Part shown: one piece after another, positions 1,239 to 35,577 of the stretch
Layout: each line of letters starts with the position of its first letter
Numbering within the stretch: the stretch's first letter is position 1
From: an uncultured virus (IMG/VR IMGVR_UViG_3300032516_007629)
Taxonomy: Duplodnaviria; Heunggongvirae; Uroviricota; Caudoviricetes
Reading direction: 5' to 3' (one strand)
IMG/VR virus record: IMGVR_UViG_3300032516_007629
DNA length: 64,000 nucleotides
Notes under the pieces: model-generated
Told to the model about the DNA's origin: nothing
Database searches by the model: none
What the model saw: only the letters and a program-made list of their open reading frames with translations
Position numbers and translations under genes: made by a program

Positions 1239-1906
1239 AGTCTAACAGAAAAGACATCTCAGGGCAGCGGTTTGGGCGCTTGTACGTTCTTTCATATAGT
1301 CATTATAAGCCTGCACAGGCTTATTGGCATTGCCAATGTACTTGTGGAAAAATGACTATTAAAAGTGGTGCTGCCTTGCGTAGGGGGACTACTAGTTCCT
1401 GCGGATGCCTACAGATAGAAAGTGCTAGACAGAAACAGTTAGATAATTTTTACAAACACGGAAAAGCAGGGAAAAAAATCTATTCTATTTATATAAATAT
1501 GCTTTCGCGCTGCTCTAATAAGCAAGACCTGGCTTACCCTTATTATGGAGGTCGTGGAGTATCGGTGTGCGAAACCTGGCAAGAAAATTTTAGTAATTTT
1601 TTACAAGATATGGGCGAACCCACAGGTGAATTGACATTAGATCGAAAAGATAACAACGGTAATTATACCAAAGATAATTGTCATTGGGCTACCAAAAAAC
1701 AACAAGCCAATAACCGTAGAAATAATGTTAATGTGGAAAGAAATGGCGAGACCAAAACTCTTAAAGAATGGTGTGAATATTTAGGAATGCCTTACAAAAC
1801 TGTGCATAGGCGTATCGCTAAATATGATTGGGGGATTGAGGAGGCTTTGACTATTCCAGTAGATCGGGGTGGCGTTATTGCTCGGCGTATAAGAGGATCA
1901 ATATAA
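1235..1906 (+). CDS. Phage homing-endonuclease-like protein (HNH-related)
   Basis: DISGQRFGRL...WHCQCTCG...SCGC N-terminus, YGGRGVSVC and TLDRKDNNGNYTKDNCHWAT motifs typical of freestanding phage HNH endonucleases. Confidence 0.85.
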   Translation: MKSNRKDISGQRFGRLYVLSYSHYKPAQAYWHCQCTCGKMTIKSGAALRRGTTSSCGCLQIESARQKQLDNFYKHGKAGKKIYSIYINMLSRCSNKQDLAYPYYGGRGVSVCETWQENFSNFLQDMGEPTGELTLDRKDNNGNYTKDNCHWATKKQQANNRRNNVNVERNGETKTLKEWCEYLGMPYKTVHRRIAKYDWGIEEALTIPVDRGGVIARRIRGSI

Positions 1907-2063
1907 TGTGGAAGAGTAAAGCCTTTGATGTTATAGATGCCTGGTTTGATGCCTACCCGGTATTGAGCATAGTGATATTCTGTTTGTTACTTATCCTTAC
2001 CTCGCCACTTTTAATCGTGGCTACAGGATACTCCTATTTTCTAAAATATGTGCTTAGGAGCAA

Positions 2064-2342
2064 ATGATGAGTCTCTTGGCAAACATTCGAGATATCCTGT
2101 TTGATCGCCCCTACTCCGCAGCCGAACGCATAGCCTTTGGCGCACACGTAATTTTGTACCAAGATGTGTCTGCAAACATCAGCGCCGAAAGGACAAATTG
2201 CAACGGCACCTACGGCATGCGTCTTTGCATAAGAGATGGAAACGCTACAGTATCGATTGATCTGTCGCCAGATGCCGCATTTAATGTTGCCAACCAAATC
2301 AAAGATGTGGTCCAACGACTCGTACAGCAAAATAGAAGTTGA
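2064..2342 (+). CDS. Hypothetical protein
   Basis: ORF with AGGAG SD upstream. Confidence 0.6.
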   Translation: MMSLLANIRDILFDRPYSAAERIAFGAHVILYQDVSANISAERTNCNGTYGMRLCIRDGNATVSIDLSPDAAFNVANQIKDVVQRLVQQNRS

Positions 2343-2367
2343 CAAATCCAAAACGGATCGTTAGATT
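2339..2367 (+). promoter_or_regulatory. sigma70-type promoter of tRNA operon 1
   Basis: TTGACA-17 nt-TAGATT. Confidence 0.85.
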
Positions 2368-2418
2368 AAATACTAAGGGTACCCAGTGGGTGTCCTGAAT
2401 TTAATTTCAGAGGGTGTC

Positions 2419-2478
2419 TTGAAAAATAAATTTTACAGCATGTGGTATTTTTACTTCTCCTCGGAGCGAAGGGAATAA
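2419..2478 (+). CDS. Leader peptide 1, MKNKFYSMWYFYFSSERRE (attenuator of the Met/Phe/Tyr/Trp tRNA operon)
   Basis: TTG start after GAGGGTG SD. Eight of codons 5-13 are F/Y/M/W, matching the four downstream tRNAs. Confidence 0.85.
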   Translation: MKNKFYSMWYFYFSSERRE

Positions 2479-2497
2479 CACGGCTATTTGCCTAAAT

Positions 2498-2532
2498 AAA
2501 ACCCCGCTCCTACTTCAGGTGCGGGGTTTTTT
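2498..2532 (+). terminator. Intrinsic terminator (attenuator) before tRNA operon 1
   Basis: AAAACCCCGCTCCT-ACTTC-AGGTGCGGGG-TTTTTT. The 5' arm can alternatively pair with GGAGCGAAGGG (2463-2473). Confidence 0.9.
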
Positions 2533-2571
2533 GCGTTTAAGGAGGTGAAAGGACAAAGTGTTTTTATAGAC

Positions 2572-2648
2572 GGCGGTGTAGGCAAATTGGTTTGCCACCA
2601 TGCTCATAACGTGGATCAATGTGGGTTCGAGTCCCATCACCGCCACCA
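2572..2648 (+). tRNA. tRNA-Met(CAT), probably elongator
   Basis: Acceptor GGCGGTG/CACCGCC, anticodon arm CCATG-CTCATAA-CGTGG, GTTCGAGTC, encoded CCA. No initiator GGG/CCC stem. Confidence 0.9.
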
Positions 2649-2651
2649 CAT

Positions 2652-2728
2652 GCCAAGATAACTCAGCCAGCTAGAGTGTCCGAATGAAAATCGGAAGGTC
2701 GTGGGTTGAAATCCCACTCTTGGCACCA
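2652..2728 (+). tRNA. tRNA-Phe(GAA)
   Basis: GCCAAGA/TCTTGGC acceptor, TCCGA-ATGAAAA-TCGGA, CCA end. Confidence 0.92.
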
Positions 2729-2730
2729 AT

Positions 2731-2814
2731 GGGAGAGTCGCCTAATTGGACGGGCAACGGACTGTAAATCCGCCGATTAATTTCAAGTGAGTTCGATTCT
2801 CACCTCTCCCACCA
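2731..2814 (+). tRNA. tRNA-Tyr(GTA)
   Basis: GGGAGAG/CTCTCCC acceptor, CTGTAAA loop, extended variable region, CCA end. Confidence 0.92.
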
Positions 2815-2825
2815 TTTTTCCCAAT

Positions 2826-2899
2826 ACGGTAGTAGCTTAATGTAGAGCCTTGGACTCCAAATCTAAGAGGCGTCGGATCAACCCCGACCTACCGTGCCA
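2826..2899 (+). tRNA. tRNA-Trp(CCA)
   Basis: ACGGTAG/CTACCGT acceptor, TTGGA-CTCCAAA-TCTAA, G73-CCA. Confidence 0.88.
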
Positions 2900-2959
2900 C
2901 ATTGGACACCCGCCTCGCTAAATGTTAAAATCCAAAAAACCATTTAGCGCGAGGCATAT

Positions 2960-3322
2960 TTGAAAATCAAAGAACTAAAAGCAGTCCTAAATAGTATTGG
3001 TGATCGTTACGACGATTGGGATTTAGCTATCCCGCTGTCTAAGCCATCGATTGGGGCTATCGCTACCTGCAAAGTGCGAAGCATCAGTTTTGGTTTTGAC
3101 TGGGAACACGGCAAGGCTTTGATCAATCCGGAAGGTCGGCTAAACGAGAAAACAAAACCCGAAGATGTCTATCACGATGCCTCTGAATTTCTCCTGTGGC
3201 TTGCCACGAAGCCAATTAAACGAGAAACTTACGAAATGAGGGAAGCTAAAAGGATCCTGCTACGTGCAGGACACACCGAGGAAGATCTTTGTAAGTACCA
3301 AAGATATTTGCACGAGGTTTAA
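2960..3322 (+). CDS. Hypothetical phage protein
   Basis: ORF with GAGG SD and its own TGGACA-17-TAAAAT promoter. Confidence 0.65.
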   Translation: MKIKELKAVLNSIGDRYDDWDLAIPLSKPSIGAIATCKVRSISFGFDWEHGKALINPEGRLNEKTKPEDVYHDASEFLLWLATKPIKRETYEMREAKRILLRAGHTEEDLCKYQRYLHEV

Positions 3323-3330
3323 AGCAGGCT

Positions 3331-3558
3331 ATGTACAAACTAAATGTTGATCCAGACAAGCTTAAAAACCTTGCCAAAGACGAAGAGGGGTTTGATATCT
3401 CCGCTGGTATTCCAGTGATCCCACCACTACCAGATCGACCCTTTGACCCTAATGCTACCATAGCTATCTGCGGCGAGTGCGGACTTGAACTAAAAACTGT
3501 GATGTGTTATTCATGTTCAAACCCAAAGTGTCCTTGCTTTCCTCAAATTAGGTGTTAA
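3331..3558 (+). CDS. Small Cys-rich (zinc-ribbon-like) protein
   Basis: CGECG...CYSCSNPKCPC. Confidence 0.55.
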   Translation: MYKLNVDPDKLKNLAKDEEGFDISAGIPVIPPLPDRPFDPNATIAICGECGLELKTVMCYSCSNPKCPCFPQIRC

Positions 3559-3562
3559 AAAA

Positions 3563-3874
3563 ATGGGATGGATCTATTTACTTATAGCGATTCTACTAGA
3601 GTTTGCTGGTACTTTTAGCCTGAAGTATTCTGAAGGATTCACCCACCTCCCCCCCGTCTTCTATGCTTTATGCTTTTATCTTGGGTGCCTGCTTAGCTTC
3701 ACCCTTGCACTAAATCATCTAGAACTTTCCCGCATGTATGCCCTATGGACCGGCATCGGTACCATCCTGTCCGTGTTCGTTGGCTATTACTTCTTCAAAG
3801 AACCTCTAGGTGCGCTCAAGTGCTTTTCCATTTTCCTTATTGTTCTCGGCGTGTTAGGCACTATAACCTTTTAA
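3563..3874 (+). CDS. SMR/DMT-family small multidrug transporter
   Basis: 103 aa, four hydrophobic segments, WIYLLIAILLE (conserved TM1 Glu), KYSEGF, YALWTGIG. Confidence 0.9.
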   Translation: MGWIYLLIAILLEFAGTFSLKYSEGFTHLPPVFYALCFYLGCLLSFTLALNHLELSRMYALWTGIGTILSVFVGYYFFKEPLGALKCFSIFLIVLGVLGTITF

Positions 3875-3921
3875 GCCTCTGGTGCCAAAGATTAAGTAAA
3901 AATACTGGGGGTTCCAAAAGG

Positions 3922-4977
3922 ATGAAAAAGATCTTTATAACTGGTGCTACGGGTATGATTGGGGGTGAGATTGCGTTGAGGTTAGCTGCTACCTGTGAGG
4001 TGTCCTGTTTAACTCGCGGGGGTTCGCAGGAGGAGGCGCAGAAGCGGTTAGATCTTAGGTTAAAGAAGAGTCTTTTGTTTCGGGATCTGGGGATCAAAGC
4101 TGTTTTAGGAGATTTGCATCAAGAGGGTTTGGGTGTAGCGGGTGATTACGATATAGACGTGATAGTGCATGCGGCGGCTGAGACGGCTTTTAACGATGCT
4201 GATTCGTGCCGCCTCACTAACATTGAGGGTACGAAGAGGGTTATTGAGTTTGCTAAGCGTTGTAAAAATCCTCCATTATTATGTTACATAAGTACTGCAT
4301 GTAATGTAGGTGCGGTTACTAATACGTGTTTAAAGGAAGAGGATGGGTGTCGTTTAGACAATGAGCACCACAATGAATACACGAAGTCGAAGGCTATATC
4401 TGAGACCTTGATTCGCAATTCAGGGTTACCTTTCTTGATTATTCGTCCGCCTATTGTCTTAAGTGACAGTGTAAAGGATAGGGGATTTGCGCGTCAGATC
4501 TTTTGGTTTGCCCCTATCGTCTTTAAATTTAAAGCGGTACCAGTCTCCCCAACATCTAGGTTGGATATTATCCCAGTGAGTTACTTAGTGGAATATATCG
4601 ATAAGCTCTTAGCACTGCCTGAGAGGAAATATGACTGTTATAATATATCTGCGGGTGAAAAGGACTGCTTTACTTCTTTTGAATGGGTAGAAGCTATCCG
4701 CAAATTTAATAAGGCTTCTTATGCCCCTAAGCTGATACCTCCAGCAGAGTGGACTAAAGACGATTATAAAAAATATGTCAATACACCGGACCTGGCGAAA
4801 TCCTTTCGGAGCTTGCAGTATTATTTTCCCTTTATGACCATGGATGTCGTATTCAATAACGCTCGACTTCAAGAAGAGTTTGGCGTATTAAAAGTCCCTC
4901 CACTACATACCTATGTGGACACCATCCTAGCTCAAGTGTCGGAAGAGGAAGCTTTAGAGGAGAGCCAGGCACCGTGA
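3922..4977 (+). CDS. Extended SDR NAD(P)-binding oxidoreductase (fatty-acyl/thioester reductase-like)
   Basis: IFITGATGMIG Rossmann motif, HAAA, YISTA, YTKSK catalytic YxxxK, IIRPPIV. Confidence 0.85.
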   Translation: MKKIFITGATGMIGGEIALRLAATCEVSCLTRGGSQEEAQKRLDLRLKKSLLFRDLGIKAVLGDLHQEGLGVAGDYDIDVIVHAAAETAFNDADSCRLTNIEGTKRVIEFAKRCKNPPLLCYISTACNVGAVTNTCLKEEDGCRLDNEHHNEYTKSKAISETLIRNSGLPFLIIRPPIVLSDSVKDRGFARQIFWFAPIVFKFKAVPVSPTSRLDIIPVSYLVEYIDKLLALPERKYDCYNISAGEKDCFTSFEWVEAIRKFNKASYAPKLIPPAEWTKDDYKKYVNTPDLAKSFRSLQYYFPFMTMDVVFNNARLQEEFGVLKVPPLHTYVDTILAQVSEEEALEESQAP

Positions 4978-5062
4978 AACAGCATGACTTAATTTTCTCA
5001 ATTATTTTGTTCGCATTCATTACCGCAATCCTCGTTCTAGGATTTTTTCTAGACAGTAAAAT

Positions 5063-5091
5063 TTGACAGATCCATTTTCGTCTGCTAGATT
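5063..5091 (+). promoter_or_regulatory. sigma70-type promoter of tRNA operon 2
   Basis: TTGACA-17 nt-TAGATT. Confidence 0.85.
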
Positions 5092-5121
5092 AAATGGAGT
5101 AGGTAATTTTTGGAGATAAAA

Positions 5122-5190
5122 ATGTTCAACGTATCCATTAGTACAATTTGCACCTCGGTCTCAACGACCGGAGCGGGGCTTTTGCACTGA
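5122..5190 (+). CDS. Leader peptide 2, MFNVSISTICTSVSTTGAGLLH (attenuator of the Ile/Ser/Ser/Thr/Cys/Val tRNA operon)
   Basis: GGAG SD and ATG. Codons 4-16 are all V/S/I/T/C, matching the downstream tRNAs. Confidence 0.9.
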   Translation: MFNVSISTICTSVSTTGAGLLH

Positions 5191-5205
5191 TTTTGCGATG
5201 AACGC

Positions 5206-5255
5206 AAGCAAACCCCCCGCCTCCGAGAAAAAGGAAGCGGGGGGGTTTGCTTTTT
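5206..5255 (+). terminator. Intrinsic terminator (attenuator) before tRNA operon 2
   Basis: AAGCAAACCCCCCGCCTCC...GGAAGCGGGGGGGTTTGC-TTTTT. The 5' arm can alternatively pair with GGAGCGGGG (5170-5178). Confidence 0.9.
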
Positions 5256-5257
5256 AG

Positions 5258-5331
5258 GGGCGTGTAGTTCAATGATAGAGCACCTGCCTGATATGCAGAA
5301 GACGAAAGTTTGATTCTTTCCACGCCTACCA
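5258..5331 (+). tRNA. tRNA-Ile(GAT)
   Basis: GGGCGTG/CACGCCT acceptor, CTGC-CTGATAT-GCAG, ACCA end. Confidence 0.85.
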
Positions 5332-5341
5332 GAAGTTAAAA

Positions 5342-5557
5342 GTGCAAGCACGTAAGACATATAAACACATTAACTGCCTAGACACAGCGATAGAGGTTCA
5401 AAGGATATTGGGAGTATGTGAAGATGGAACATTGTCCGTATTAGTTTCTTGGTGGAATATACGCGCAAAGATTCCTAGGAAAATTGTTAGGTACCAGGCA
5501 GTTAACATAAGAAAGGAGGAGATAGATAACTGGAAAGAATGGCATAGGGCAGCCTAA
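5342..5557 (+). CDS. Hypothetical protein inside tRNA operon 2
   Basis: 71-aa ORF between tRNA-Ile and the HNH gene. Confidence 0.5.
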   Translation: MQARKTYKHINCLDTAIEVQRILGVCEDGTLSVLVSWWNIRAKIPRKIVRYQAVNIRKEEIDNWKEWHRAA

Positions 5558-5564
5558 AAACAAG

Positions 5565-5774
5565 GTGGCTCATTGGCGATTTCAAAAACAAAGGATAATG
5601 GCGCTTAGGGGCGGCAAATGTGAATTGTGTGGATTTAAAGAGTACCCGGAAATTCTTCATTCACACCATATAATCCCTCGATCTTCTGGAGGTAGTAATA
5701 ATGATGAGAATTTAAGATTAATTTGTCCAAATTGTCACGCTATTGAACACCACTTAATGCGTACTGCTAGTTAG
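5565..5774 (+). CDS. Small HNH endonuclease inside tRNA operon 2
   Basis: CELCG...HHIIPRSSGGSN...NLRLICPNCH. Confidence 0.85.
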   Translation: MAHWRFQKQRIMALRGGKCELCGFKEYPEILHSHHIIPRSSGGSNNDENLRLICPNCHAIEHHLMRTAS

Positions 5775-5787
5775 TGTTTTATTTTAC

Positions 5788-5875
5788 GGAGCAATGAGTG
5801 AGAGGCTTAAACTAGCGGTCTTGAAAACCGCCGTGGGTAAAACCACCATCCGTTCAAATCGGATTTGCTCCTCCA
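5788..5875 (+). tRNA. tRNA-Ser(TGA)
   Basis: GGAGCAA/TTGCTCC acceptor, GCGGT-CTTGAAA-ACCGC, long variable arm, CCA end. Confidence 0.92.
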
Positions 5876-5926
5876 TTTTTTCTTTGCAGTATACTACTAG
5901 GTAATATAAGTGACGTAGGTTAACAT

Positions 5927-6019
5927 GGATGCTTGGGTGAGTGGCTTAAACCATAACTTTGCTAAAGTTACGTACTCTATAAAGGGGTACCGTCCGTTCG
6001 ACTCGGACAGCATCCGCCA
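5927..6019 (+). tRNA. tRNA-Ser(GCT)
   Basis: GGATGCT/AGCATCC acceptor, TAACT-TTGCTAA-AGTTA, long variable arm, GCCA end. Confidence 0.92.
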
Positions 6020-6020
6020 T

Positions 6021-6099
6021 GCCACAATAGCTCAGTTGGTAGAGCAGTCGCCTTGTAAGCGAAAGGTCGGTTCGGGTTCGATCCCCCCTTGTGGCTCCA
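6021..6099 (+). tRNA. tRNA-Thr(TGT)
   Basis: GCCACAA/TTGTGGC acceptor, TCGC-CTTGTAA-GCGA. The T-stem carries an apparent 3-nt TTC bulge. Confidence 0.85.
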
Positions 6100-6110
6100 T
6101 TTTAGATTAA

Positions 6111-6191
6111 GAGGCAGTGTGCCGAGTGTTGAAGGCGGTCGCCTGCAAAGCGACAAAATCATCGTGGGTTAAAATCCCATCTGCCTCTCCA
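6111..6191 (+). tRNA. tRNA-Cys(GCA)
   Basis: GAGGCAG/CTGCCTC acceptor, GTCGC-CTGCAAA-GCGAC, U73-CCA. Confidence 0.9.
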
Positions 6192-6212
6192 ATAGATTTG
6201 ATAGAAAGTTAA

Positions 6213-6290
6213 GGGCGTATAGGTTAGTTGGTTAAACCGTCTCGTTTACACCGAGAAGATCCGTAGGTTCAAATCCTACTGCGCCTACCA
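6213..6290 (+). tRNA. tRNA-Val(TAC)
   Basis: GGGCGTA/TGCGCCT acceptor, TCTCG-TTTACAC-CGAGA, ACCA end. Confidence 0.92.
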
Positions 6291-6612
6291 CTTTTTTAGC
6301 AACCGCCGCGTCCCATATGCGTTTATTCTCAGGCACACGTAACGTGGTCTCAAAAATACAAGTAAATTTCTCCGCCAAATATTCCAAATTGTATGGGTAG
6401 ACAACTAATGCGTCTTCACCGTGAATAGACGCATCGGTAAAGTCTTTGCCGCTTGCCAAAGTTTGCTCGCAAATCTTAATGTACTCATTCATCAAGCCAC
6501 AAAATTCTATAAATGGATGGTTGCCTATCTTGACAGCAGAGTAGTACAGCGTTGAGCTAGCATCGTGCATGCCCTTGATCATCGTCATCAATTCTTCTTT
6601 AGAATATGTCAT
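6232..6612 (-). CDS. Hypothetical phage protein whose 3' end overlaps tRNA-Val in antisense
   Basis: 126-aa ORF (HPFIEFCGLMNEYIKIC). The last ~19 codons are the reverse complement of tRNA-Val. Confidence 0.6.
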   Translation of the reverse strand: MTYSKEELMTMIKGMHDASSTLYYSAVKIGNHPFIEFCGLMNEYIKICEQTLASGKDFTDASIHGEDALVVYPYNLEYLAEKFTCIFETTLRVPENKRIWDAAVAKKVVGAVGFEPTDLLGVNETV

Positions 6613-6773
6613 CTTAGCTCACAATTTTAAGTGTGTAATAGAACGTATAAAGCACACAAGTTAAAAAGAATAAGAGAAAGCCCATGCGTAACGCCAAGAC
6701 TCCTACGTCCCCTCCCCCTTCCTCAAGAAGGTAAACACCAGAAGCCAATAGGAACAAAGATATGATGAGAAAA

Positions 6774-9621: not shown

Positions 9622-12318
9622 TTGTTCGTAATAAAGCGCAATGGTCAATCTGAGGCTGTTCAATTTGATAAAATTCTTTTCCGTATGCGTGCTGTGGCTG
9701 AGGGGTTACGTGTAGATTCCACCTTAGTTGCGCAGAAGGTTGTGTCTGGACTTTTTAATGGTATCCAGACGACGGAAATTGATTCTTTGATTGCCGAGAC
9801 GGCGGCGGTGATGGCTACGGAGCACCCTGATTATTCTCGTTTGGCGTCTCGTGTGGCTATTTCTAATTTACATAAAGCGACGAAAAGCTTTTACCAGACG
9901 ATGAAGGATCTTTTCAAAGCTGGTATATTGTCTAGTGACTTTATAAAGCTAGTAAAGTTGCACGGCAAGCAGTTAGAAAAGCTAATCGATTACAATCGGG
10001 ATTTTGAGTTAGATTTTTTCGGGTTTAAGACTTTAGAGAAGTCTTATCTTTTAAAGATACACGACAAGGTAGTGGAGCGTCCGCAGCATTTATTTATGCG
10101 TGTGGCGTTGCAGGTTTCGGGTGAGAGTTTTGAGGAGATTGTCGAGACGTATGACTTGATCTCCAAGGGGTTGTATACGCATGCCACTCCAACCCTGTTT
10201 AATTCAGGGTGTACAAGACCCCAGCTCGGAAGTTGTTTTTTAATGGAGATGCAAGACAGTGTGGATGGAATTTACGACGCACTTAAGGAGTGCGCCCAGA
10301 TCAGTAAGTATGCCGGTGGGATTGGGATCCACATCCACGACATTAGGGCGAAGGGTTCGCTGATTAAGGGTACTGGCGGTAAGTCTACGGGTCTTCTGCC
10401 TACTTTGAAGCCTTTAGATGCAACGGCTCGTTTTATCAATCAGGGTGGCAAACGTAACGGTTCCATTGCGGTTTACCTAGAGCCTTGGCATGCGGATATC
10501 GAAGAGTTCATAGGTCTTCGCAAGAATACGGGTATGGATAATCAGCGGTGCAGGGATTTGTTTTTAGCCCTTTGGATCAATGATTTATTCATGCAGAGGG
10601 TGGAAGAGGACGGCATCTGGTCGCTTATGTCCCCCGATGAATGTCCGGGTTTGCCAGATGTTTACGATGCAGAATTTGCCGAGTTATACACCTCCTATGA
10701 GGAGCAGGGTAAGTATCGTAAGCAGATCAAAGCTAGAGAGTTGATGACCAAGTTTGTCGAGACGATGATTGAGTGTGGAGTCCCTTACTTCTTATTTAAA
10801 GATGCTGCTAATAGGAAGTCTAACCAGAAGAATATAGGTATTATTAAAAGTTCTAACCTTTGCTTAAGTGGCGATACATTAGTCCTCACTAAGACCGGAG
10901 CCGAACCTATTGCCGACTTAGTTGGTAAAGAGGTAGAAATTTTTGATGGTGAGCAATGGGTATTGAATAAGTCTTTTAGAAAGACAGCCGAAAATGCTCA
11001 AGTGTTTAGAGTGACCTTTGCAGATAACTCCTCGGTAATTTGCACCCCATCACATAAATGGGTCCTGGATACGGGAGAGTTTATTGAAGCACACAGCCTC
11101 TCCGTAGGAGATGTCTTAAAAGTACACAATCAAGTCTATATTTATAGAACTACTCCTCGGTGTGCTGTAGTTAAAGGCATCGAAGAATTAGAAGAAGAGC
11201 AGGATGTCTACTGCACTACAGTAGATACTACTCATAAGTTTGCTTTAGCTAATGGCTTGATGACTGGTAATTGCACAGAGATTATGGAGGTTTCTACTCC
11301 TTATGAAACGGCGGTTTGTAATTTAGCTTCTCTATGTCTTCCTAAGTATGTGGAGGACGGGAAGTTTAACCACGCCAAACTGCATAAAGTGGTGAAGAGT
11401 GGGACTAAGAACTTGAATCATGTCATAGACAGAACTTTTTACCCTTTAAAGAAAACCAGTAAGAGTAATTTTGCTCACCGACCTATTGGGATTGGTGTGC
11501 AGGGTTTAGCGGATGTTTTCTTTTTACTAGACTTAGCTTTTGATTCTCCTGAAGCACGCACCTTAAATGCTCTTATATTTGAGACGATATACCATGCTGC
11601 GTTAGAGGCTTCTTGCGAGTTGTCAGAAAAATATGGATCTTACTCCACATTTGCAGGCAGCCCTGCTTCTCAGGGTATTCTCCAGTTTGATATGTGGAAT
11701 GTTACACCCACTCAATATGATTGGGATGGGTTAAAGGAACGTATCAAAAAGGGTGGTTTAAGAAATTCCTTATTAATTGCTCCTATGCCCACGGCATCTA
11801 CTGCGAGCGTGTTTGGTAATAATGAATGCTTTGAGGCGCAGACATCTAATGTGTATAAGCGGCAAGTATTAGCTGGAGAGTACGTCGTTATCAATAAACA
11901 CCTGATTAAGAAATTAGAAAAATTAGGCTTATGGGATAAGGAGATGCGCGATGAGATAATTTCTAGTAACGGTTCTATCCAGAATATTTCTAGCATTCCT
12001 GACGATGTAAAAAGTGTCTATAAAACTGTATGGGAAATATCCCAGAAGGTTGTCATTGATCTAGCTGCGGATCGCGGAGCATTCATTGACCAATCCCAGA
12101 GTATGAACTTATTCCTCTCTAGTCCAACCGTCGCACAACTCAATTCCGCTCTCTTCTATGGGTGGAAAAAAGGTCTCAAGACCGGCATGTATTATCTGCG
12201 AACCAACGCAGCTATGCAGGCGCAGAAGGTCACTACTAAAATATTAGATATGAATAATGAGGAGCAAATGTCTTGCTCTCTCGATAACCCACAAGATTGC
12301 ATTGCGTGTAGTTCTTAA
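9622..12318 (+). CDS. nrdA: Ribonucleoside-diphosphate reductase class Ia alpha subunit with ATP cone, intein-containing
   Basis: VIKRNG ATP cone, ATPTLFN, SCFL, SSNL[intein]CTEI, APMPTAST, LKTGMYYLR, C-terminal CIAC. Confidence 0.97.
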   Translation: MFVIKRNGQSEAVQFDKILFRMRAVAEGLRVDSTLVAQKVVSGLFNGIQTTEIDSLIAETAAVMATEHPDYSRLASRVAISNLHKATKSFYQTMKDLFKAGILSSDFIKLVKLHGKQLEKLIDYNRDFELDFFGFKTLEKSYLLKIHDKVVERPQHLFMRVALQVSGESFEEIVETYDLISKGLYTHATPTLFNSGCTRPQLGSCFLMEMQDSVDGIYDALKECAQISKYAGGIGIHIHDIRAKGSLIKGTGGKSTGLLPTLKPLDATARFINQGGKRNGSIAVYLEPWHADIEEFIGLRKNTGMDNQRCRDLFLALWINDLFMQRVEEDGIWSLMSPDECPGLPDVYDAEFAELYTSYEEQGKYRKQIKARELMTKFVETMIECGVPYFLFKDAANRKSNQKNIGIIKSSNLCLSGDTLVLTKTGAEPIADLVGKEVEIFDGEQWVLNKSFRKTAENAQVFRVTFADNSSVICTPSHKWVLDTGEFIEAHSLSVGDVLKVHNQVYIYRTTPRCAVVKGIEELEEEQDVYCTTVDTTHKFALANGLMTGNCTEIMEVSTPYETAVCNLASLCLPKYVEDGKFNHAKLHKVVKSGTKNLNHVIDRTFYPLKKTSKSNFAHRPIGIGVQGLADVFFLLDLAFDSPEARTLNALIFETIYHAALEASCELSEKYGSYSTFAGSPASQGILQFDMWNVTPTQYDWDGLKERIKKGGLRNSLLIAPMPTASTASVFGNNECFEAQTSNVYKRQVLAGEYVVINKHLIKKLEKLGLWDKEMRDEIISSNGSIQNISSIPDDVKSVYKTVWEISQKVVIDLAADRGAFIDQSQSMNLFLSSPTVAQLNSALFYGWKKGLKTGMYYLRTNAAMQAQKVTTKILDMNNEEQMSCSLDNPQDCIACSS
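10861..11271 (+). mobile_element. Mini-intein (137 aa) in nrdA at the catalytic NL/CTEI site
   Basis: Starts CLSGDT, block B CTPSHKW, block F DVYCTTVDTTHKF, ends TGN with +1 Cys. No endonuclease domain. Confidence 0.93.
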
Positions 12319-27057: not shown

Positions 27058-27999
27058 ATTAATTTAGTATGTATAGCTCCTAAAGATGAAACAGGCGTAA
27101 GCGATTACGCCTGTGCTCTTTTGCCTCACCTTCGCCCATCGAGTTTGTATACCCCAAACGATATTTGTTCGGCTCCTACAAACGCGGTAGTGTATATTGA
27201 GCACCAATATGCTTTATATAGTGATCAGGAGAAGTGGATTTCTGCTTTGCGCAGGATGCGAAATCCTTTTGTAAAAATGCATTGTGTATATCCTGATCCA
27301 CTTATATTAAAAGGTAAACTAGAAACTCCTGAGTATATCGATGCGATGAAGAATATCATTGTACATACTGAGGAGTCTAAAGAGGTACTATTAAGGCGAG
27401 GTGTTAAAGCTAACGTTTATGTAATCCCTCATGGGTGTCCGGAGTATTCGCAACAAGGCTCTATCCCGAGCGAGCCTAGAATATTTTCATTTGGTTTTGG
27501 CTTGCGCTATAAGGGCATAGAGATAGCGGTCAAAACTGTAAAAAACCTATTACCAGAATTTCCTACACTCTCTTACCTAGGAGTGTTTGGAGAAAAATCC
27601 GTGCCTGCTAAGTACTATTTAAAAGATATTAAAATATTAGCCACAGGCAATTTTACCTTTTTAGATTACCAACCACTAGACGAGTTAAAGGAGCTAGCGC
27701 AAACATGTTCGCTTGCACTTTTCCCTTATGTCGGAGAGGTGTATGGATCTAGTGGTGCAGTACGCTTAGCTATGGCTTGGGGACTACCTGTAGTGACTAG
27801 TAAAGCATCTCTTTTTGATGCTCTAAAAGGGGTGGTGTTGCAAGGGGATATTGAGAATAATGTGCGGAATATACTAAGAGAGTATCCGACAAGTCAGGTA
27901 AAGAGGCAGAAAAATTTTATTGAAAATCATAGCTGGAAAAGTGTGGCGGCGGAGCATTTAAAATTATTTGGTGCCAATGAGATTCCTGTGGAGATTTGA
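27058..27999 (+). CDS. GT-B (GT4-like) glycosyltransferase, probable ATT start
   Basis: TGVSDYA N-terminal motif, VIPHG, FGFGLRYKGIE, SSGAVRLAMAWGLPVVTS. Confidence 0.85.
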   Translation: MNLVCIAPKDETGVSDYACALLPHLRPSSLYTPNDICSAPTNAVVYIEHQYALYSDQEKWISALRRMRNPFVKMHCVYPDPLILKGKLETPEYIDAMKNIIVHTEESKEVLLRRGVKANVYVIPHGCPEYSQQGSIPSEPRIFSFGFGLRYKGIEIAVKTVKNLLPEFPTLSYLGVFGEKSVPAKYYLKDIKILATGNFTFLDYQPLDELKELAQTCSLALFPYVGEVYGSSGAVRLAMAWGLPVVTSKASLFDALKGVVLQGDIENNVRNILREYPTSQVKRQKNFIENHSWKSVAAEHLKLFGANEIPVEI

Positions 28000-28005
28000 A
28001 AAGCG

Positions 28006-28455
28006 TCAATCTTCGTAGTCTGCATACTCCTTGAAGGAGTTGGGATCTGCGTCAATCACATCAAAAATGATGTCCGACTTATCAAACTTGACGCCTTCGA
28101 TTTTCTTCCATGAATAGCCGCCCCCTGTCTCATACAAACTATGCGGAACGTCGATAGTGACGACGCCTTCTTCCAATTGGATGATGCAGTAGACGTGGAC
28201 CTCGTAGTTGCTACTTATCGTAGTCATGCGGGTATCTACGTGGTGCTTATAAAGCACGTCTAAGATCTGGTCTGCGATAAGGTGACAGATACCTCCAGAC
28301 CCCACCTCGTGATCATAGCCTTCGTCATCAAGCGCCCAATCGTCGTAGACTTTTTGAGCGGCTTTCGCCATGTCTGGTGCGAGTCTCTCGACATGCTTTA
28401 GGCTAGGGAGGTTGGAACTTATGATATATTTCGCCTGAACCCTATCCTTAAACAT
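28006..28455 (-). CDS. Hypothetical protein with FKxRVxxKY motif
   Basis: MFKDRVQAKYIISS, GGICHLIAD. Confidence 0.65.
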   Translation of the reverse strand: MFKDRVQAKYIISSNLPSLKHVERLAPDMAKAAQKVYDDWALDDEGYDHEVGSGGICHLIADQILDVLYKHHVDTRMTTISSNYEVHVYCIIQLEEGVVTIDVPHSLYETGGGYSWKKIEGVKFDKSDIIFDVIDADPNSFKEYADYED

Positions 28456-28464
28456 AGTTTTTCC

Positions 28465-29508
28465 TTACTTTGTAACCTTTTTAACCCAAGCTAGTAGCTC
28501 AGGGTTTTTTGTAGTCAAAGCTACTGAGAATACTTCTGCCCAGTATTCGGTGTTCCTTGTTTTCGCATAATCTGAAACATCGAAAACATCTCTATTAGCT
28601 TTATCTCCACCCACTTTTTCCCAGTACTCTATAAACTCGCCACCTGTACCTTTACCTGTCTTACCGTTGTCGTCAAAACTAACTTTATATTTCCATTTTC
28701 CTCGACTGTATTCCGGCGCAAGAATGGTGTATTCTTTTCCGTCTGTAGGACTCTTGACTATATCCCCTACTTTAAGACGTTCACGCTTATCCACCACTTC
28801 ATTATATTTTGCGTTGTTGGCAGCTTGATCCACTTTGAATTTATAATATTGCCTATGTCCAAGTTCGTGAATAAAACTACTGATAATTTGCGGCTCACTT
28901 TGATCGCCTTTAAAACGCACTTGATCAGTATCTACATTGTAATCCGCCTTCACCGTACTCTTCATCGCACTACCAATTAAGAAAACTTCCCCGTAAATGA
29001 GATGCCCAAAACCTGCGGCTCTTACAATAGCAGCAGCTTTCTTTATACCTGCTAATACGATGCTGCTGTGCTTTACACTATCTACGTGCAGGATTTTCAT
29101 CCCTTCCACATCTACTGCATCTTCTACCGAGGCATCTTTCAACTCGGGAAAAAGCTTTTGAAAAGTAGAAAGACTCAAGCCTTCTTTTTTAAGAAGTAAA
29201 GTAGATAGCTCTTTAGGAGTCACTGAGGGTAGGTTTTTCTTAAGAAACCCTTTTTCACCCGCATAGCGCAGAAGTAACACAATCATTTTCTGGGCATCTA
29301 AGCCCGCCTCTAAATGGTGTAACACTTGAGCCGAGATGACCTTGTTTGCTTTAAAAAGTAGTACCCAGTAAGTACCATCCTTCTTAGGAGCAATGGCTAT
29401 AGAAGCTCCCCCTCTAGCAGGGTAGAGATAAGTAATACCTAGATGTTGATGGTAACGAGAAACACGAGCGACTACATCATATTTATTATGTACTTGTTTT
29501 TTAAACAT
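28465..29508 (-). CDS. Zincin-like metallopeptidase (HExxH), putative virion-packaged protein
   Basis: FIHELGHR...SDYAKTRNTEYWAEVF, N-terminal MFKKQVHNKYDVVA motif. Confidence 0.7.
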   Translation of the reverse strand: MFKKQVHNKYDVVARVSRYHQHLGITYLYPARGGASIAIAPKKDGTYWVLLFKANKVISAQVLHHLEAGLDAQKMIVLLLRYAGEKGFLKKNLPSVTPKELSTLLLKKEGLSLSTFQKLFPELKDASVEDAVDVEGMKILHVDSVKHSSIVLAGIKKAAAIVRAAGFGHLIYGEVFLIGSAMKSTVKADYNVDTDQVRFKGDQSEPQIISSFIHELGHRQYYKFKVDQAANNAKYNEVVDKRERLKVGDIVKSPTDGKEYTILAPEYSRGKWKYKVSFDDNGKTGKGTGGEFIEYWEKVGGDKANRDVFDVSDYAKTRNTEYWAEVFSVALTTKNPELLAWVKKVTK

Positions 29509-29687
29509 GTACATAATCTTACTGCTAAGCACCTAGTAAGGACAGTCATCGACGCCCCCTAGATGAAATAGGCTCAGCCAACTCTTTAAAAAGCATAGGA
29601 GGACCGACAATGGTATTGCAACAATACCAGAACCCTTTTATCAGGATTCTTTTAGTCCCCTCCACACTTCCACAACGAGGACATGAA

Positions 29688-30179
29688 TCAAGTATTAGCC
29701 TTGTCAACGTCAAGATCTTCCCATCTATAAACTACAGCCAAGGTACCTGAACCTTCTCCAGGTCGGATATGCCCTAAGTCGGGGCTGTATATATGGTAGT
29801 GCCCACTACTTTCAATACTAGTGATTTCACCTTCTACTCCTTCCCTAGGAAGCTTAATCGTATCACCCACCTTGTATTTAGGCATGAGAGTTTTGGCGTA
29901 CTCCCTCTCTAAATTTTTAAGCGGCTTAAAGCTGAGATAGGAAGCCTCGTCTAAAATCTCTACAAGACCGGCATCGGGACTCCAATCATCTAACCTTTGA
30001 GCAAGAGCATACCCGTCCCAATCAAAGCCATTATTCAAAGCTTCAGTTAGCTCTTCTTTCGCACTCTCCTCATTACAATCATCACCCAACGCTTTAAGCC
30101 AAGCTAGGCACTTAGGATACAACTTATCCACAACCGCTTGGATCACTTCCGGTGAATGCTTGTTCGGACGACGCGCCAT
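29688..30179 (-). CDS. Hypothetical phage protein
   Basis: DGYALAQRLDDW, PKYKVGD. Confidence 0.6.
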   Translation of the reverse strand: MARRPNKHSPEVIQAVVDKLYPKCLAWLKALGDDCNEESAKEELTEALNNGFDWDGYALAQRLDDWSPDAGLVEILDEASYLSFKPLKNLEREYAKTLMPKYKVGDTIKLPREGVEGEITSIESSGHYHIYSPDLGHIRPGEGSGTLAVVYRWEDLDVDKANT

Positions 30180-30382
30180 GTGTATTTCCCTATAGAAAAG
30201 GGAAATATTAACCTGCGAAAAGACTGCAAGGCAAGATCGAACCCTAGCACAGCGAAATTAAATTTCTTGCATTTTTACGACAAATGTGACATCATTAAAA
30301 GATGTATATACGCCGAGTAAATCTAGCCCGAATATGAACCTTGACAGGTTTCGTTTCCGCTAGTAACGGTTAGATATCTATT

Positions 30383-30458
30383 GGACCCATAGCTCAATGG
30401 TTAGAGCAGCAAACTCATAATTTGTTGGTTCGGGGTTCGAGTCCCTGTGGGTCCACCA
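30383..30458 (+). tRNA. tRNA with CAT anticodon, probably tRNA-Ile2 (lysidine, reads AUA)
   Basis: GGACCCA/TGGGTCC acceptor, TAGCTCAATGGTTAGAGCA D-arm and CTCATAA loop resembling bacterial Ile2. Met identity is not excluded. Confidence 0.8.
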
Positions 30459-30467
30459 TTCTCCCTT

Positions 30468-31337
30468 CTACCACCTGATTTGCCCCTCTTTTAGCTTCTT
30501 AAACGTAATCCTTTCTACTTCCATCTTTTCTTCACCTTTATATTTTAACGTCTTCAAAACGCTCCTAGCATCGCGGCATAACGTGCGAAAACCATCTGGC
30601 TCCAAGGATGCCGAATGGTCTGTGCCCCGCCAAGTGCGATCTAGTGTGAAATGCCGTTCGATGTATGTAGCGCCTAGGGTAAGGGCGGCAATATCGGCGG
30701 CAATTCCTAGGTGGTGCCCGCTAAATCCTACAGCTTTTACCCTACCTTGGTACTTGGTAATCAGGTTAGGGATCTCAAGCAAGCATACATCTTCAAAGGC
30801 GACGGGGTACCCAGAAGTGCATGAATATATTACTAAATCTTGATGTCGTTTATTGACCTCAAAAAGTGAAACAATTTTTTCGATTTCATCCTCTTCAGTC
30901 ATTCCCAGAGACAAATGTATCTCACCTGTAAAACCCGTGATTAGTTCCATCAACAGAGGCTTGTTTAGGTTACACGCTGACGGCACTTTGATCATTTTTG
31001 GTTGTAATGTTATTATTTCCTTTGCTGACGTTACGTCCCACACCGAAGTGGAGTACTCTATGTGAGCCTCATCACACCAACGCTTTAGCTGTGCATGTTC
31101 TTCGATAGTGAACTCTAACCGTTCCCTGTGTTCGCCATAGCTTGCCCCATAGCTATTATACCCATTAGGGTGTGGAGCGTTGTACTCTTCCTCCGTAAGA
31201 AGCTCTCTAATGCAACGTTTTTGGAATTTTACAACGTCTGCTTTAACAATGTGGCTAGCCACTTCAATCATCTCTTTGGCTATTTTAAGCTCACCCTTGT
31301 GATTGCACCCGATCTCCGCTATTAGTTTAACGTTCAT
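30468..31337 (-). CDS. neuB: NeuB-family nonulosonic acid (Neu5Ac/KDN-type) synthase
   Basis: LIAEIGCNHKG, DVVKFQKR, IKVPSA, GFSGH, IERHFTLDR...DHSASLEP. Lacks the C-terminal AFP-like domain. Confidence 0.92.
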   Translation of the reverse strand: MNVKLIAEIGCNHKGELKIAKEMIEVASHIVKADVVKFQKRCIRELLTEEEYNAPHPNGYNSYGASYGEHRERLEFTIEEHAQLKRWCDEAHIEYSTSVWDVTSAKEIITLQPKMIKVPSACNLNKPLLMELITGFTGEIHLSLGMTEEDEIEKIVSLFEVNKRHQDLVIYSCTSGYPVAFEDVCLLEIPNLITKYQGRVKAVGFSGHHLGIAADIAALTLGATYIERHFTLDRTWRGTDHSASLEPDGFRTLCRDARSVLKTLKYKGEEKMEVERITFKKLKEGQIRW

Positions 31338-32026
31338 GTTGATTCTCCGTGATAATGTTTTTTCATAGCCGCCTCCGCCATGTACCAATCCTCCGGTTCA
31401 TCAATGTCAATAGCCGTATATTCTGGCATCTCGAAAATTTCAACCTTAGTTGATAACCTATTTTTAAATATTCTAATATTCTTCACGGAATTGACGTAAA
31501 ATGCTCCGTTTTCCATAAGCGTCCCTGCGAAGTCTTGGCGTCGTGGTCTATTTAGGTAGTCATAGTTTATGGGAGAACCAGCGTCACCCCAAAAAAATCT
31601 CTTTACTCTTGAGCAGGACAAGACAGAAGATTTTCCCCCGCTGTTCAAATATCGGAGAATTCCCCCCTCGTAGTCTTCCGTCCTGGTCAAAGGGCAAGTT
31701 GCTTGAGATAATAAAAAGATCGTCTCATCAGAGATGTGTTGTTTCTCTATAAACTCCAAGATAACACTTTCTGTCGTTGATGCATCCTCTGCATTTTTGG
31801 GATCTCGGTCGTAAATCTTAACTTTGCCAAAAGCAAAGTTGCTAACTACATCTTTGATATCCAGGTTATCCGTCGCTACATATATCTTATTGATGCTTTC
31901 GACTGCCGACAACGCCCGTAGGTTCCAATATACTAGTGGCTTCCCGCAGAAATCCTTTATGTTTTTCAATGGTATCGACTTGCTTCCACCACGCACAGGG
32001 ACGAAAGCAATTAAATTAGGAGCCAT
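31334..32026 (-). CDS. neuA: CMP-nonulosonate (acylneuraminate) cytidylyltransferase
   Basis: PVRGGSKSIPLKNI, QATCPL, RPRRQD, ENGAFY, DIDEPED. Confidence 0.92.
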   Translation of the reverse strand: MAPNLIAFVPVRGGSKSIPLKNIKDFCGKPLVYWNLRALSAVESINKIYVATDNLDIKDVVSNFAFGKVKIYDRDPKNAEDASTTESVILEFIEKQHISDETIFLLSQATCPLTRTEDYEGGILRYLNSGGKSSVLSCSRVKRFFWGDAGSPINYDYLNRPRRQDFAGTLMENGAFYVNSVKNIRIFKNRLSTKVEIFEMPEYTAIDIDEPEDWYMAEAAMKKHYHGEST

Positions 32027-32057
32027 GATGTCCTGCCACATAAGTGAGTTAAATAAT

Positions 32058-33164
32058 TTAGGGTAAACATTTAAATAGACGTAAATAGGTTTGGGGATCT
32101 TTATGTTGTTCTTCAGTTAGAGTAAATTCTTTTATAAGCGTAAGAAATTTATCTACATCCTCACTCCAGTGTTCTCTTGAGAAAAACTCTGCTGTTTCCT
32201 CCAGTGAAGTTGGCGGTTTGGTATAAACTATATCCGCAGCAGAGTAGTAGGTTTTACCCAAGACTATAACTTTTTTACCTAAACAAAGTGCCTCAAATCC
32301 AGCGGTGCAGCTTACGGTAATAACGTAATCCGCAGCATTCATTAAATCAAAGCCGTTCACATCTCGGCCTAAGGTAAGGGTACCTTCTAGTATCTCTTCA
32401 TCGTCTGGTGCTTTGGGGTGTCTTTTATAAATAACCTCATATTTGCTACTATCAATAACTCGTGTACACCATTGTTGGAAGCACTTCGTCTCTTCAAATG
32501 TTGAGCCGAAACCGGGAATGTCCTGTCTGACCAGATGGGTCAGAACTTGAAGAGGAACGAAAACTAATCTCTTTGTCTTGTCTAAACCATAGCGTTCAAA
32601 AATCTCATCTTTGCTATATATAATATTGCCCTGTGCGGCATCCTTAAGAGATGCTAACCACGGCAGATCTAACTGAAGTGTGTCTTTGCGCTGTTGGTAT
32701 ATGCGGGGAAGGTTGCTGGTTGTATGGAAACCCCCAAAGTTGAAAAGATACCAACTTGGTTTCCTATACATCCACATGGAGGTGAAATCTTTGTGAGTCC
32801 TGTCAAGCCTACAACTCAGGACATCTTGGCATATTACCGGAATTCCTCTAGAGCTGAAAAAGTCGTTTAAATAAACATCCTCATTCCAAAACACGACTCC
32901 CGTAAAATTATATTTATCACATAAAGGGTTCAATGTATTATCTGACAAATAGAACCAAGGGGAGTCTATGGTTTCAACTACAACGTTAGAATACGAGGAG
33001 ATATTCATGCTCGTTACCAACTCCGGAGTAGTTAAGATTACTATTTTTTGGCAGTAGTCTTTTAAACGACCTACTATGTCAACAAATAGTGAAAGTGGCC
33101 AGTCCCAAGGTGTCATAAATAGTAGGGTCTCGGCTTCGGTTAAATTTTTATAGTGCGTGTTCAT
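32058..33164 (-). CDS. Capsule-biosynthesis (KpsC/S-like) GT-B protein, candidate nonulosonate transferase
   Basis: VFVPLQ, YKRHP, VITVSCTAGFEALCLGKKVIVLG. Confidence 0.75.
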   Translation of the reverse strand: MNTHYKNLTEAETLLFMTPWDWPLSLFVDIVGRLKDYCQKIVILTTPELVTSMNISSYSNVVVETIDSPWFYLSDNTLNPLCDKYNFTGVVFWNEDVYLNDFFSSRGIPVICQDVLSCRLDRTHKDFTSMWMYRKPSWYLFNFGGFHTTSNLPRIYQQRKDTLQLDLPWLASLKDAAQGNIIYSKDEIFERYGLDKTKRLVFVPLQVLTHLVRQDIPGFGSTFEETKCFQQWCTRVIDSSKYEVIYKRHPKAPDDEEILEGTLTLGRDVNGFDLMNAADYVITVSCTAGFEALCLGKKVIVLGKTYYSAADIVYTKPPTSLEETAEFFSREHWSEDVDKFLTLIKEFTLTEEQHKDPQTYLRLFKCLP

Positions 33165-33166
33165 AC

Positions 33167-35048: not shown

Positions 35049-35140
35049 TGGCTGGGATGGTGGGATTTGAACCCACGAAGAAGCTTCCGCCTCTTGCCAG
35101 AGTCAAAGTCTGGTGCCTTAAGCCGCTCGACCACATCCCG
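35049..35140 (-). tRNA. tRNA-Gln(TTG) with atypical long variable arm
   Basis: CCAGA-CTTTGAC-TCTGG, 7-bp variable stem AAGAGGC-GGAA-GCTTCTT, C1xA72, G73-CCA. Confidence 0.85.
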
Positions 35141-35228
35141 ATAAAAAATCAAGGTGTAGCCTCACTGTCGCAATGTCCTATTGTTGAAGAAACCTCGAAT
35201 ATTTTAACATACAAATCCTTTTAAATAT

Positions 35229-35304
35229 TGGAGCGGATGATGGGACTCGAACCCACTTTCTTCAGCTTGGAAGGCTGACGCTAGACCAGTTTAGCTTCAT
35301 CCGC
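35229..35304 (-). tRNA. tRNA-Gly(TCC)
   Basis: GCGGATG/CATCCGC acceptor, TCAGC-CTTCCAA-GCTGA, U73-CCA. Confidence 0.92.
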
Positions 35305-35311
35305 AACCTTG

Positions 35312-35385
35312 TGGAGCCGATAGGGAGAATTGAACTCCCTCCCGCACACTGGCAGTGTGCCATGCTACCGTAACACTTTATCGGC
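35312..35385 (-). tRNA. tRNA-Gly(GCC)
   Basis: GCCGATA/TATCGGC acceptor, GCACA-CTGCCAG-TGTGC, U73-CCA. Confidence 0.92.
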
Positions 35386-35387
35386 AT

Positions 35388-35464
35388 TGGTGGAAGTAGT
35401 GGGACTCGAACCCACGAAAAACTTGGTTGCAAACCAAGTGCAATTGCCGCTATGCGATACCCCC
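35388..35464 (-). tRNA. tRNA-Ala(TGC)
   Basis: GGGGGTA/TACTTCC acceptor with G3:U70, CTTGG-TTTGCAA-CCAAG. Confidence 0.92.
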
Positions 35465-35499
35465 ATTACGAACCTTTAGACTTTTCTCCTTTCCTTTAG

Positions 35500-35577
35500 T
35501 GGGGTGAATGACGGTACTCGAAACCGCATTATGCCGCCTTCACAGGGCGGTGATCTTCCTCTTGATCTACATCCACC
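35500..35577 (-). tRNA. tRNA-His(GTG)
   Basis: G-1:C73, CCGCC-CTGTGAA-GGCGG, CCA end. Confidence 0.92.

Follow-up and report, generated by a model that had tools for sequence, protein, structure and literature searches.

In this paper, we describe a 64,000-nucleotide stretch of DNA from an uncultured tailed phage (IMG/VR record IMGVR_UViG_3300032516_007629; hereafter the window), in which a short leader unit, A2, directly precedes a cluster of six transfer RNA (tRNA) genes. Judging from its sequence and from RNA folding models, A2 is probably a ribosome-mediated leader-peptide transcription attenuator of the phage tRNA operon, which would place tRNA supply under negative feedback. The unit combines the features expected of such an attenuator, namely an open reading frame (ORF) with a Shine-Dalgarno sequence, a series of regulatory codons matching the tRNAs encoded behind it, an intrinsic terminator and an antiterminator overlapping it. 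We infer that the leader is translated, that ribosomes stall on it, that RNA polymerase reads through the terminator and that the cluster is co-transcribed across a small HNH endonuclease gene located within it. An initial annotation of the same DNA had already proposed an attenuator at this position, and its proposal is sustained with regard to the promoter, the Shine-Dalgarno sequence, the leader ORF, the cognate codon run and three mutually exclusive helices, with support that is computational throughout.

All features of A2 and its operon are on the + strand. The unit begins with a predicted sigma-70-type promoter, TTGACA-17 nucleotides (nt)-TAGATT (5063-5091, or to 5094 with the trailing AAA), which has a TG before the -10 hexamer, matches the consensus at 10 of 12 positions and is the sole + strand promoter-like site in 4900-6700. 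Downstream of it, a Shine-Dalgarno sequence (GGAG, 5112-5115) can be read from the sequence 6 nt 5' of an ATG at 5122, where a leader ORF of 22 codons, MFNVSISTICTSVSTTGAGLLH, starts and runs to a TGA at 5188-5190 (5122-5190). Codons 4-16 of this ORF (5131-5169) form the regulatory run VSISTICTSVSTT. The intrinsic terminator (5208-5255; -32.4 kcal/mol) consists of a GC-rich stem-loop (5208-5250) followed by TTTTT (5251-5255), and from its end it is only 3 nt to the start of the first tRNA gene, tRNA-Ile(GAT) (5258-5331; ARAGORN, with an Rfam score of 62.2 bits).

Between this tRNA and the other five lies the HNH endonuclease gene (5565-5774; 69 amino acids; PF01844, E = 2.8e-13), after which ARAGORN places tRNA-Ser(TGA) (5788-5875), tRNA-Ser(GCT) (5927-6019), tRNA-Thr(TGT) (6021-6099), tRNA-Cys(GCA) (6111-6191) and tRNA-Val(TAC) (6213-6290). 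Rfam supports four of the six tRNAs of the cluster, both Ser tRNAs being outside its 15 matches in the window. A terminator-like hairpin with a T-rich tail (6307-6329) directly 3' of the last tRNA is likely to mark the end of the transcription unit. It is the only site listed by a terminator scan of the + strand of 4900-6700, a scan that missed the attenuator terminator itself, and between 5091 and 6290 neither a further promoter-like nor an internal terminator-like site was listed on the + strand. Since tRNAs located past the HNH gene account for 11 of the 13 regulatory codons, and a leader in another phage likewise samples tRNAs past an endonuclease gene (see below), A2 should govern the whole cluster. 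In population contigs from sediment-metagenome runs, breaks occur at 5611 together with a variant joint at 5538/5611, and one such contig has 13 different nucleotides in place of 72 nt where the HNH gene starts; the insertion is polymorphic and looks like a later, mobile arrival.

The regulatory codons of A2 read GTA TCC ATT AGT ACA ATT TGC ACC TCG GTC TCA ACG ACC. Each encodes Val, Ser, Ile, Thr or Cys, which are the amino acids served by the six tRNAs of the cluster, and all five are present. The initial annotation had recorded 13 consecutive codons of this kind ahead of the Ile-Ser-Ser-Thr-Cys-Val genes, and both this observation and all of its coordinates are correct. In a six-frame translation of the window (approximately 128,000 codons), no other run from the set {I,S,T,C,V} reaches these 13 residues, the next ones being of 12 and 9 residues; with a set frequency of 0.303, an independent-residue model gives a probability of about 2e-7 per position for such a run. 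The 12-residue run, near 26.03 kb, was set aside as part of a spurious reading frame on the strand opposite an ORF. Strictly cognate codons account for 9 of the 13, a figure that rises to 13 of 13 if four-way reading by U34 is allowed, and all six anticodons are sampled.

The window holds two further units of the same design, A1 and A3. There are exactly three copies of the promoter motif TTGAC-N20-GATTAAA in the window, all of them preceding a leader unit, against an expectation of 0.52, and only 2 of 100 shuffled sequences reach three occurrences. Unit A1 (+ strand) comprises the promoter (2339-2370), a leader ending in KFYSMWYFYFSSERRE (2386-2478 from a GTG start or 2440-2478 from an ATG start), a terminator at about 2498-2533 and ARAGORN-predicted genes for tRNA-Met, Phe, Tyr and Trp (2572-2899); its leader contains FYSMWYFYF, and its {M,F,Y,W} run is tied for the longest in the window. 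Unit A3 (- strand) comprises the promoter (35896-35865), a leader MFVQQNNQANHGAGNGSRGIGLS (35822-35751) with a GGAG 7 nt before its ATG, a terminator (35727-35699) and, again by ARAGORN, genes for tRNA-Asn, His, Ala, Gly, Gly and Gln (35668-35049). The regulatory run of A3, QQNNQANHGAGNG, is a 13-residue {N,H,A,G,Q} run and the longest of its kind in the window, where the next has 6 residues. When every leader was compared with every cluster, the diagonal gave matches of 13/22, 15/23 and 6/12 and the off-diagonal pairs 0-5. In an alignment of the three units, the promoter, the Shine-Dalgarno region and the terminator core are common and the regulatory codons differ, so that by their sequences A1, A2 and A3 look like paralogues retuned to their own clusters. 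Of the four groups into which the 17 ARAGORN-predicted tRNA genes of the window fall, the remaining one consists of a single tRNA-Met at 30383 and lacks a leader unit. Within the A3 cluster, the tRNA called Gln(ttg) (35049-35140, - strand; 92 nt) has a class-II-like long variable arm, a C1/A72 mismatch and G73, which is unusual for a Gln anticodon.

Further units were recovered from metagenome contigs, which we searched with an alignment of the HD-type phosphohydrolase encoded next to A3. Besides the contig to which the window belongs, the search recovered a strain variant sharing the A3 leader and, fortuitously, a distant phage rich in tRNA genes (contig L077, with L110). In the strain variant (contig L045, 8560-10281, corresponding to window positions 35049-35896), the phosphohydrolase is 100% identical and the A3 leader is the same, and the cluster is rearranged: tRNA-Asn is duplicated, a 267-nt gap follows tRNA-His and an extra terminal tRNA-Met is present, the leader being unchanged despite the added Met. 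The 92-nt Gln(ttg) tRNA is found in this variant as well.

The distant phage belongs to an unrelated lineage, in which the regulatory run HSIHTISISTSSS precedes tRNA genes for Ser, His, Thr and Ile. Its leader ORF, MRRHSIHTISISTSSSDQAGLLVTQN, is followed by a terminator and then by Ser(cga), Ser(gct), Ser(tga), His, His, Thr(cgt), Thr(ggt), an endonuclease-like gene, Ser(gga), Ile(tat) and Ile(gat). Each of the 13 regulatory codons is strictly cognate to a downstream tRNA, and the run samples all nine distinct anticodons, a coverage for which synonymous resampling gives P=0.019; Ile is encoded both by ATA, fitting Ile(tat), and by ATT, fitting Ile(gat). A leader with MRRHSIHTISISTSSS, together with its terminator, is found in contigs L077, L110 and L125-L128, a degenerate pattern for the peptide having added four IMG/VR contigs to L077 and L110. 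Variants of this type differ by synonymous changes (CAT/CAC, TCT/TCA) and by the loss of one AGT. A common layout is thereby seen in A2, A3 and L077, in which Met and two further codons are followed by 13 regulatory codons (4-16) and a tail of 6-10 codons containing the antiterminator strand. With A1, A2, A3 and the L077 lineage, there are four amino-acid sets, each fitting its own tRNA cluster.

The other gaps of L077, a contig with 32 tRNAs, contain no leaders and are occupied by degenerate tRNA-like sequence or an endonuclease gene. Many of these gaps, of 100-330 nt within 1718-4543, hold degenerate tRNA-like sequence with GGTTCGA.TCC cores that ARAGORN does not call and that may represent decayed or unusual tRNAs. 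In contig L126 (3495-5330), neither Ser(cga) nor Ser(gct) is called downstream by ARAGORN, and Ser(tga) is followed by a gap of 870 nt, yet the leader keeps one AGT and one TCG; this may reflect either a lagging leader or uncalled tRNAs. In a relative with 39% identity (contig L050), a GTG-initiated ORF, MQNTSRHYQDSGGWG, precedes Gln/Tyr/His tRNAs, and its score of 3.04 is within the background described below (maximum 3.76), so we do not count it as evidence.

For the background, we sampled 137 random IMG/VR loci matching a generic tRNA pattern (T-loop...CCA), which provided 221 distinct tRNA cluster heads, and scored the short ORFs upstream of each by their longest run of residues from the downstream tRNA set. 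The highest score was 3.76, so that none of the 221 heads scored at least 4, and permuted tRNA sets gave on average 0.62 scores of at least 4. With the same pipeline, A2 scored 7.39, A3 7.89 and A1 5.66. Given these low background scores, the leader match cannot be put down to sequence composition around tRNA genes, and among phages it is rare.

The folding of the A2 transcript offers three helices that exclude one another. In the 1:2 helix (5124-5204; -27.1 kcal/mol for 5122-5206), the first half of the ORF is paired with its tail and the adjoining spacer; this helix is present in the full-length minimum free energy structure (z = -4.16). In the 2:3 antiterminator helix (-28.3 kcal/mol), segment 2, the antiterminator strand GGAGCGGGGCUUUUGC (5170-5185), pairs with the terminator 5' arm (5208-5224), and the 3:4 helix is the terminator itself (-32.4 kcal/mol). 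Analogous helix triplets are found in A1 and A3. The pairing of GGAGCGGGG (5170-5178) with CCCCGCCTCC (5215-5224), pointed out in the initial annotation, proved to be the core of the longer 2:3 helix. The CGGTC/GACCG hairpin that had been suggested there as a protector is likewise present (5155-5159/5166-5170), but only as the tip of the longer 1:2 helix; regarding a protector role for 1:2 as a whole, the helix of -27.1 kcal/mol exists and the ribosome-free truncated fold favours 2:3. The best duplex between the A2 leader and the terminator 5' arm has an energy of -23.2 kcal/mol, compared with -10.9 +/- 2.6 kcal/mol in dinucleotide shuffles, none of which (0/1000) was as good; the corresponding numbers were 1/1000 for A3 (extended arm) and 13/1000 for L077.

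To place the ribosome in these structures, the transcript was cut before the terminator 3' arm and a 31-nt mask was stepped along the ORF, the truncated (kinetic) fold being used because the terminator always wins at equilibrium for A2 and A1. The masked A2 fold contains the antiterminator with the A-site at codons 3-14 and lacks it from codon 15 to the stop; the antiterminator-permitting A-sites are codons 3-14 in A3 and 3-15 in L077. In this model, the regulatory codons coincide with the stall positions that permit read-through, which is the classical geometry of an attenuator.

Based on these structures, A2 would operate as follows. Transcription would start from the promoter at 5063, and a ribosome would load at the GGAG and the ATG at 5122. 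If charged tRNAs for the Val, Ser, Ile, Thr and Cys codons arrived slowly, the ribosome would linger on codons 4-14, covering segment 1 and leaving segment 2 (5170-5185) free. Segment 2 could then pair with 5208-5224, the 5' arm of the terminator, while the 3' arm was still to be transcribed, and RNA polymerase would continue through tRNA-Ile, the HNH gene and the tRNAs for Ser, Ser, Thr, Cys and Val. With fast decoding, the ribosome would instead move to codons 15-23 over segment 2, and the 5208-5250 hairpin would stop transcription 3 nt before tRNA-Ile. The outcome would be that the six tRNAs are made when they or their host equivalents are limiting, and the same design with other codons would control the other two tRNA clusters of the phage. 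A wider reading, to which we give slightly less than an even chance, is that the phage holds its tRNA genes in regulons with codon-matched sensors, each cluster being induced when its own codons are decoded slowly, and that the units are inducible tRNA homeostats and possibly counter-defence switches. The slowing could then come from scarce host tRNAs, from their decay after infection or from cutting by a host anticodon nuclease.

Several observations weigh against an attenuator of this kind. Four of the 13 regulatory codons of A2 (TCC, ACC twice and GTC) are not read by the U34 tRNAs of the phage under strict wobble, and thus need either four-way U34 reading or host tRNAs. The match down to isoacceptor level that the initial annotation had claimed holds as a description, all six anticodons being sampled, but not statistically, as the coverage is within chance (synonymous resampling P=0.287); support at this level comes only from the sequences of the different phage lineage L077, through its nine anticodons. 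A 456-nt gap with the HNH gene parts tRNA-Ile from the other five tRNAs, and a promoter of a non-consensus type is possible inside it. The antiterminator of A1 is statistically weak (67/1000 shuffles as good), as is that of A3 when a narrow arm is used (166/1000), and the ribosome footprint of the mask (A-site -18 to +12 nt) is an assumption. Moreover, full-length equilibrium folds keep the terminators of A2 and A1 at all ribosome positions, and only A3 switches; as the terminator wins at equilibrium, the switch of A2 must be kinetic and co-transcriptional. None of the 24 sediment-metagenome runs carrying the stretch is listed as an RNA run, and the population contigs are too nearly identical for a covariation test of A2. 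Finally, the ribosome-free truncated fold of A2 also gives the 2:3 antiterminator, so that termination without translation is not predicted unless 1:2 folds first, and in this model the absence of translation may itself give read-through, unlike in trp.

This last property favours the strongest of the alternatives, according to which A2 is a real attenuator that reads the general status of translation, such as host shut-off, global slowing, ribosome availability or the stage of infection, and thus serves as a timing or global-stress switch, as any failure of translation would cause read-through. The four codons that are not strictly cognate and the non-significant isoacceptor match of A2 point in the same direction. 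A sensor of general status needs no codon matching, however, and yet three paralogous leaders each use the set of their own cluster, an unrelated lineage matches nine of nine anticodons at P=0.019, and none of the 221 random heads has such runs; we regard this alternative as unlikely, if worth keeping in mind. Less probable still, and in our judgement a small residual chance, is that translation of the leader acts by another route, through Rho access, through processing by RNase P or RNase E, or through a coupling of opposite sign. With the terminator only 3 nt from the tRNA, every read-through transcript needs RNase P and the leader structure could matter for it, and the sign of the regulation is not fixed by experiment; on the other side, a terminator with a T-run and a statistically supported complementarity between segment 2 and the 5' arm are the classical requirements of a switch, and the same geometry recurs in four units whose terminators are unrelated in sequence. 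That there is no switch at all, the hairpin being a constitutive leaky terminator or an element of RNA processing or stability, the ORF being incidental or encoding a peptide with its own role, and the tRNAs being made by leak or from other promoters, is hardly credible: the terminator, at -32.4 against -28.3 kcal/mol for the antiterminator, does always form at equilibrium, but the longest {I,S,T,C,V} and {N,H,A,G,Q} runs and the tied {M,F,Y,W} run each directly precede the matching cluster, the promoter motif is confined to the three unit sites, the antiterminator is equalled in 0/1000 shuffles, the extent of the codon run fits the read-through window, and the sole + strand promoter-like site stands before the tRNAs.

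Ribosome-mediated attenuation, which we consider the best account of A2, is best known from amino-acid operons, including those with the leaders trpL, hisL, pheL and leuL and the multivalent thrL and ilvL/ivbL. Like A2, these have a promoter, a short ORF with regulatory codons, overlapping 1:2/2:3/3:4 helices and an intrinsic terminator, and stalling on the regulatory codons leads to read-through, as is proposed here. Multivalence is a further shared trait, since the thr and ilv leaders each respond to more than one amino acid, as A2 would. In contrast to these operons, A2 precedes tRNA genes and not enzyme genes, so the product fed back would be the decoding adaptor; it samples five amino acids and six anticodons in one 13-codon run; and it resides in a phage, in three retuned copies. 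It also differs from trp superattenuation in that its ribosome-free transcript is predicted to read through. The general mechanism of leader-peptide attenuation is covered in PMC1183508.

Attenuators also precede genes of the translation apparatus. The pheM leader of Escherichia coli pheST stands before synthetase genes, and such synthetase leaders share with A2 the ribosome-mediated attenuation of a gene that serves the leader's own codons. There, however, one amino acid is sensed and a protein enzyme is controlled, whereas A2 would control a set of tRNAs, all of which are sampled by its leader. A leader with His codons before hisS paralogues and hisZ in bacilli is reported in PMC2965389. T-box riboswitches resemble A2 in coupling the status of tRNA to terminator read-through via an antiterminator, but they bind uncharged tRNA directly through a specifier codon and without translation, while A2 has a Shine-Dalgarno sequence and an ORF. 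An Rfam scan of the whole window at gathering thresholds returned only the 15 tRNA matches and neither a T-box nor any other leader family, which rules out a T-box identity for A2. Among phages, the tRNA arrays of T5 and Rctr197k are similar to the A2 cluster in having clustered tRNAs with inserted HNH genes and, according to the T5 annotation, promoters and terminators; yet no codon-matched leader was found in T5 (15 heads, best score 2.95) or in Rctr197k (10 heads, best score 2.64), compared with 7.39 for A2.

The window comes from a large uncultured tailed phage and represents 64 kb of a source contig of 90.6 kb, the tRNA clusters being counted inside the window only. Its proteins include a tail-sheath-like protein, a ribonucleotide reductase, an SNF2 helicase, an RNA ligase and several HNH endonucleases. 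The large subunit of the ribonucleotide reductase (9622-12318, + strand) has an intein-splicing match, and the SNF2-type helicase (47223-51641, - strand) has an intein of the Hint/LAGLIDADG homing-endonuclease type. The RNA ligase (54689-55723, + strand; PF09414 and an OB-fold) and the HD-type phosphohydrolase (35893-36534, - strand), whose gene is immediately upstream of unit A3, are candidates for functions in tRNA repair or end healing, which fits a phage whose tRNA supply is under pressure. A block of glycan genes (27121-34978) encodes a NeuB-family sialic-acid synthase, a capsule-synthesis protein, WbsX/RgpF glycosyltransferases and a group-1 glycosyltransferase. Upstream of A2, a hydrophobic ORF of 30 codons (MKQHDLIFSIILFAFITAILVLGFFLDSKI; 4974-5066, + strand) overlaps the stop of an SDR-type reductase gene, ends at the attenuator promoter and may encode a small membrane peptide.

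No close relative of the phage was found among GenBank phages or in IMG/VR. A blastn search against GenBank phages matched tRNA fragments only (119 records, none covering at least 80%), tblastn with two proteins gave only distant relatives with at most 30% identity, from Ackermannviridae-like phages and with one match to Rctr197k, and three protein scans found no close relative in IMG/VR. Near-identical DNA is present in the 24 sediment-metagenome runs. Contigs from four sediment runs showed no listed difference from the window within 5040-5330, and the variants recorded in A1 were at 2377, at 2498 and as an insertion after 2516, in the terminator loop.

In the open full-text literature, we found no report of tRNA genes under the control of a leader peptide, the subscription-only literature being outside the search. 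On the evidence of its sequence, A2 would thus represent a known mechanism, leader-peptide attenuation, acting on a class of target, tRNA genes, for which we found no description in any organism. The purpose of phage tRNAs is debated, and the hypotheses include codon compensation, making up for host tRNAs that have been degraded, and evasion of defences that cleave tRNAs (PMC10264068, PMC11555353, PMC11464382). Regulation of phage tRNAs has hardly been addressed. As the promoter, the Shine-Dalgarno sequence and the terminator are of the ordinary bacterial type, the prediction is directly testable with laboratory reporter fusions, and the unit would also make a compact and portable genetic part reporting the availability of chosen tRNAs. 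If the proposed mechanism is true, leader-peptide attenuation, known for amino-acid operons and some synthetase genes, would be seen to act on the adaptor molecules as well, the grouping of particular tRNAs in one cluster would be explained, and the phage would gauge the decoding of specific codons and supply tRNAs on demand.

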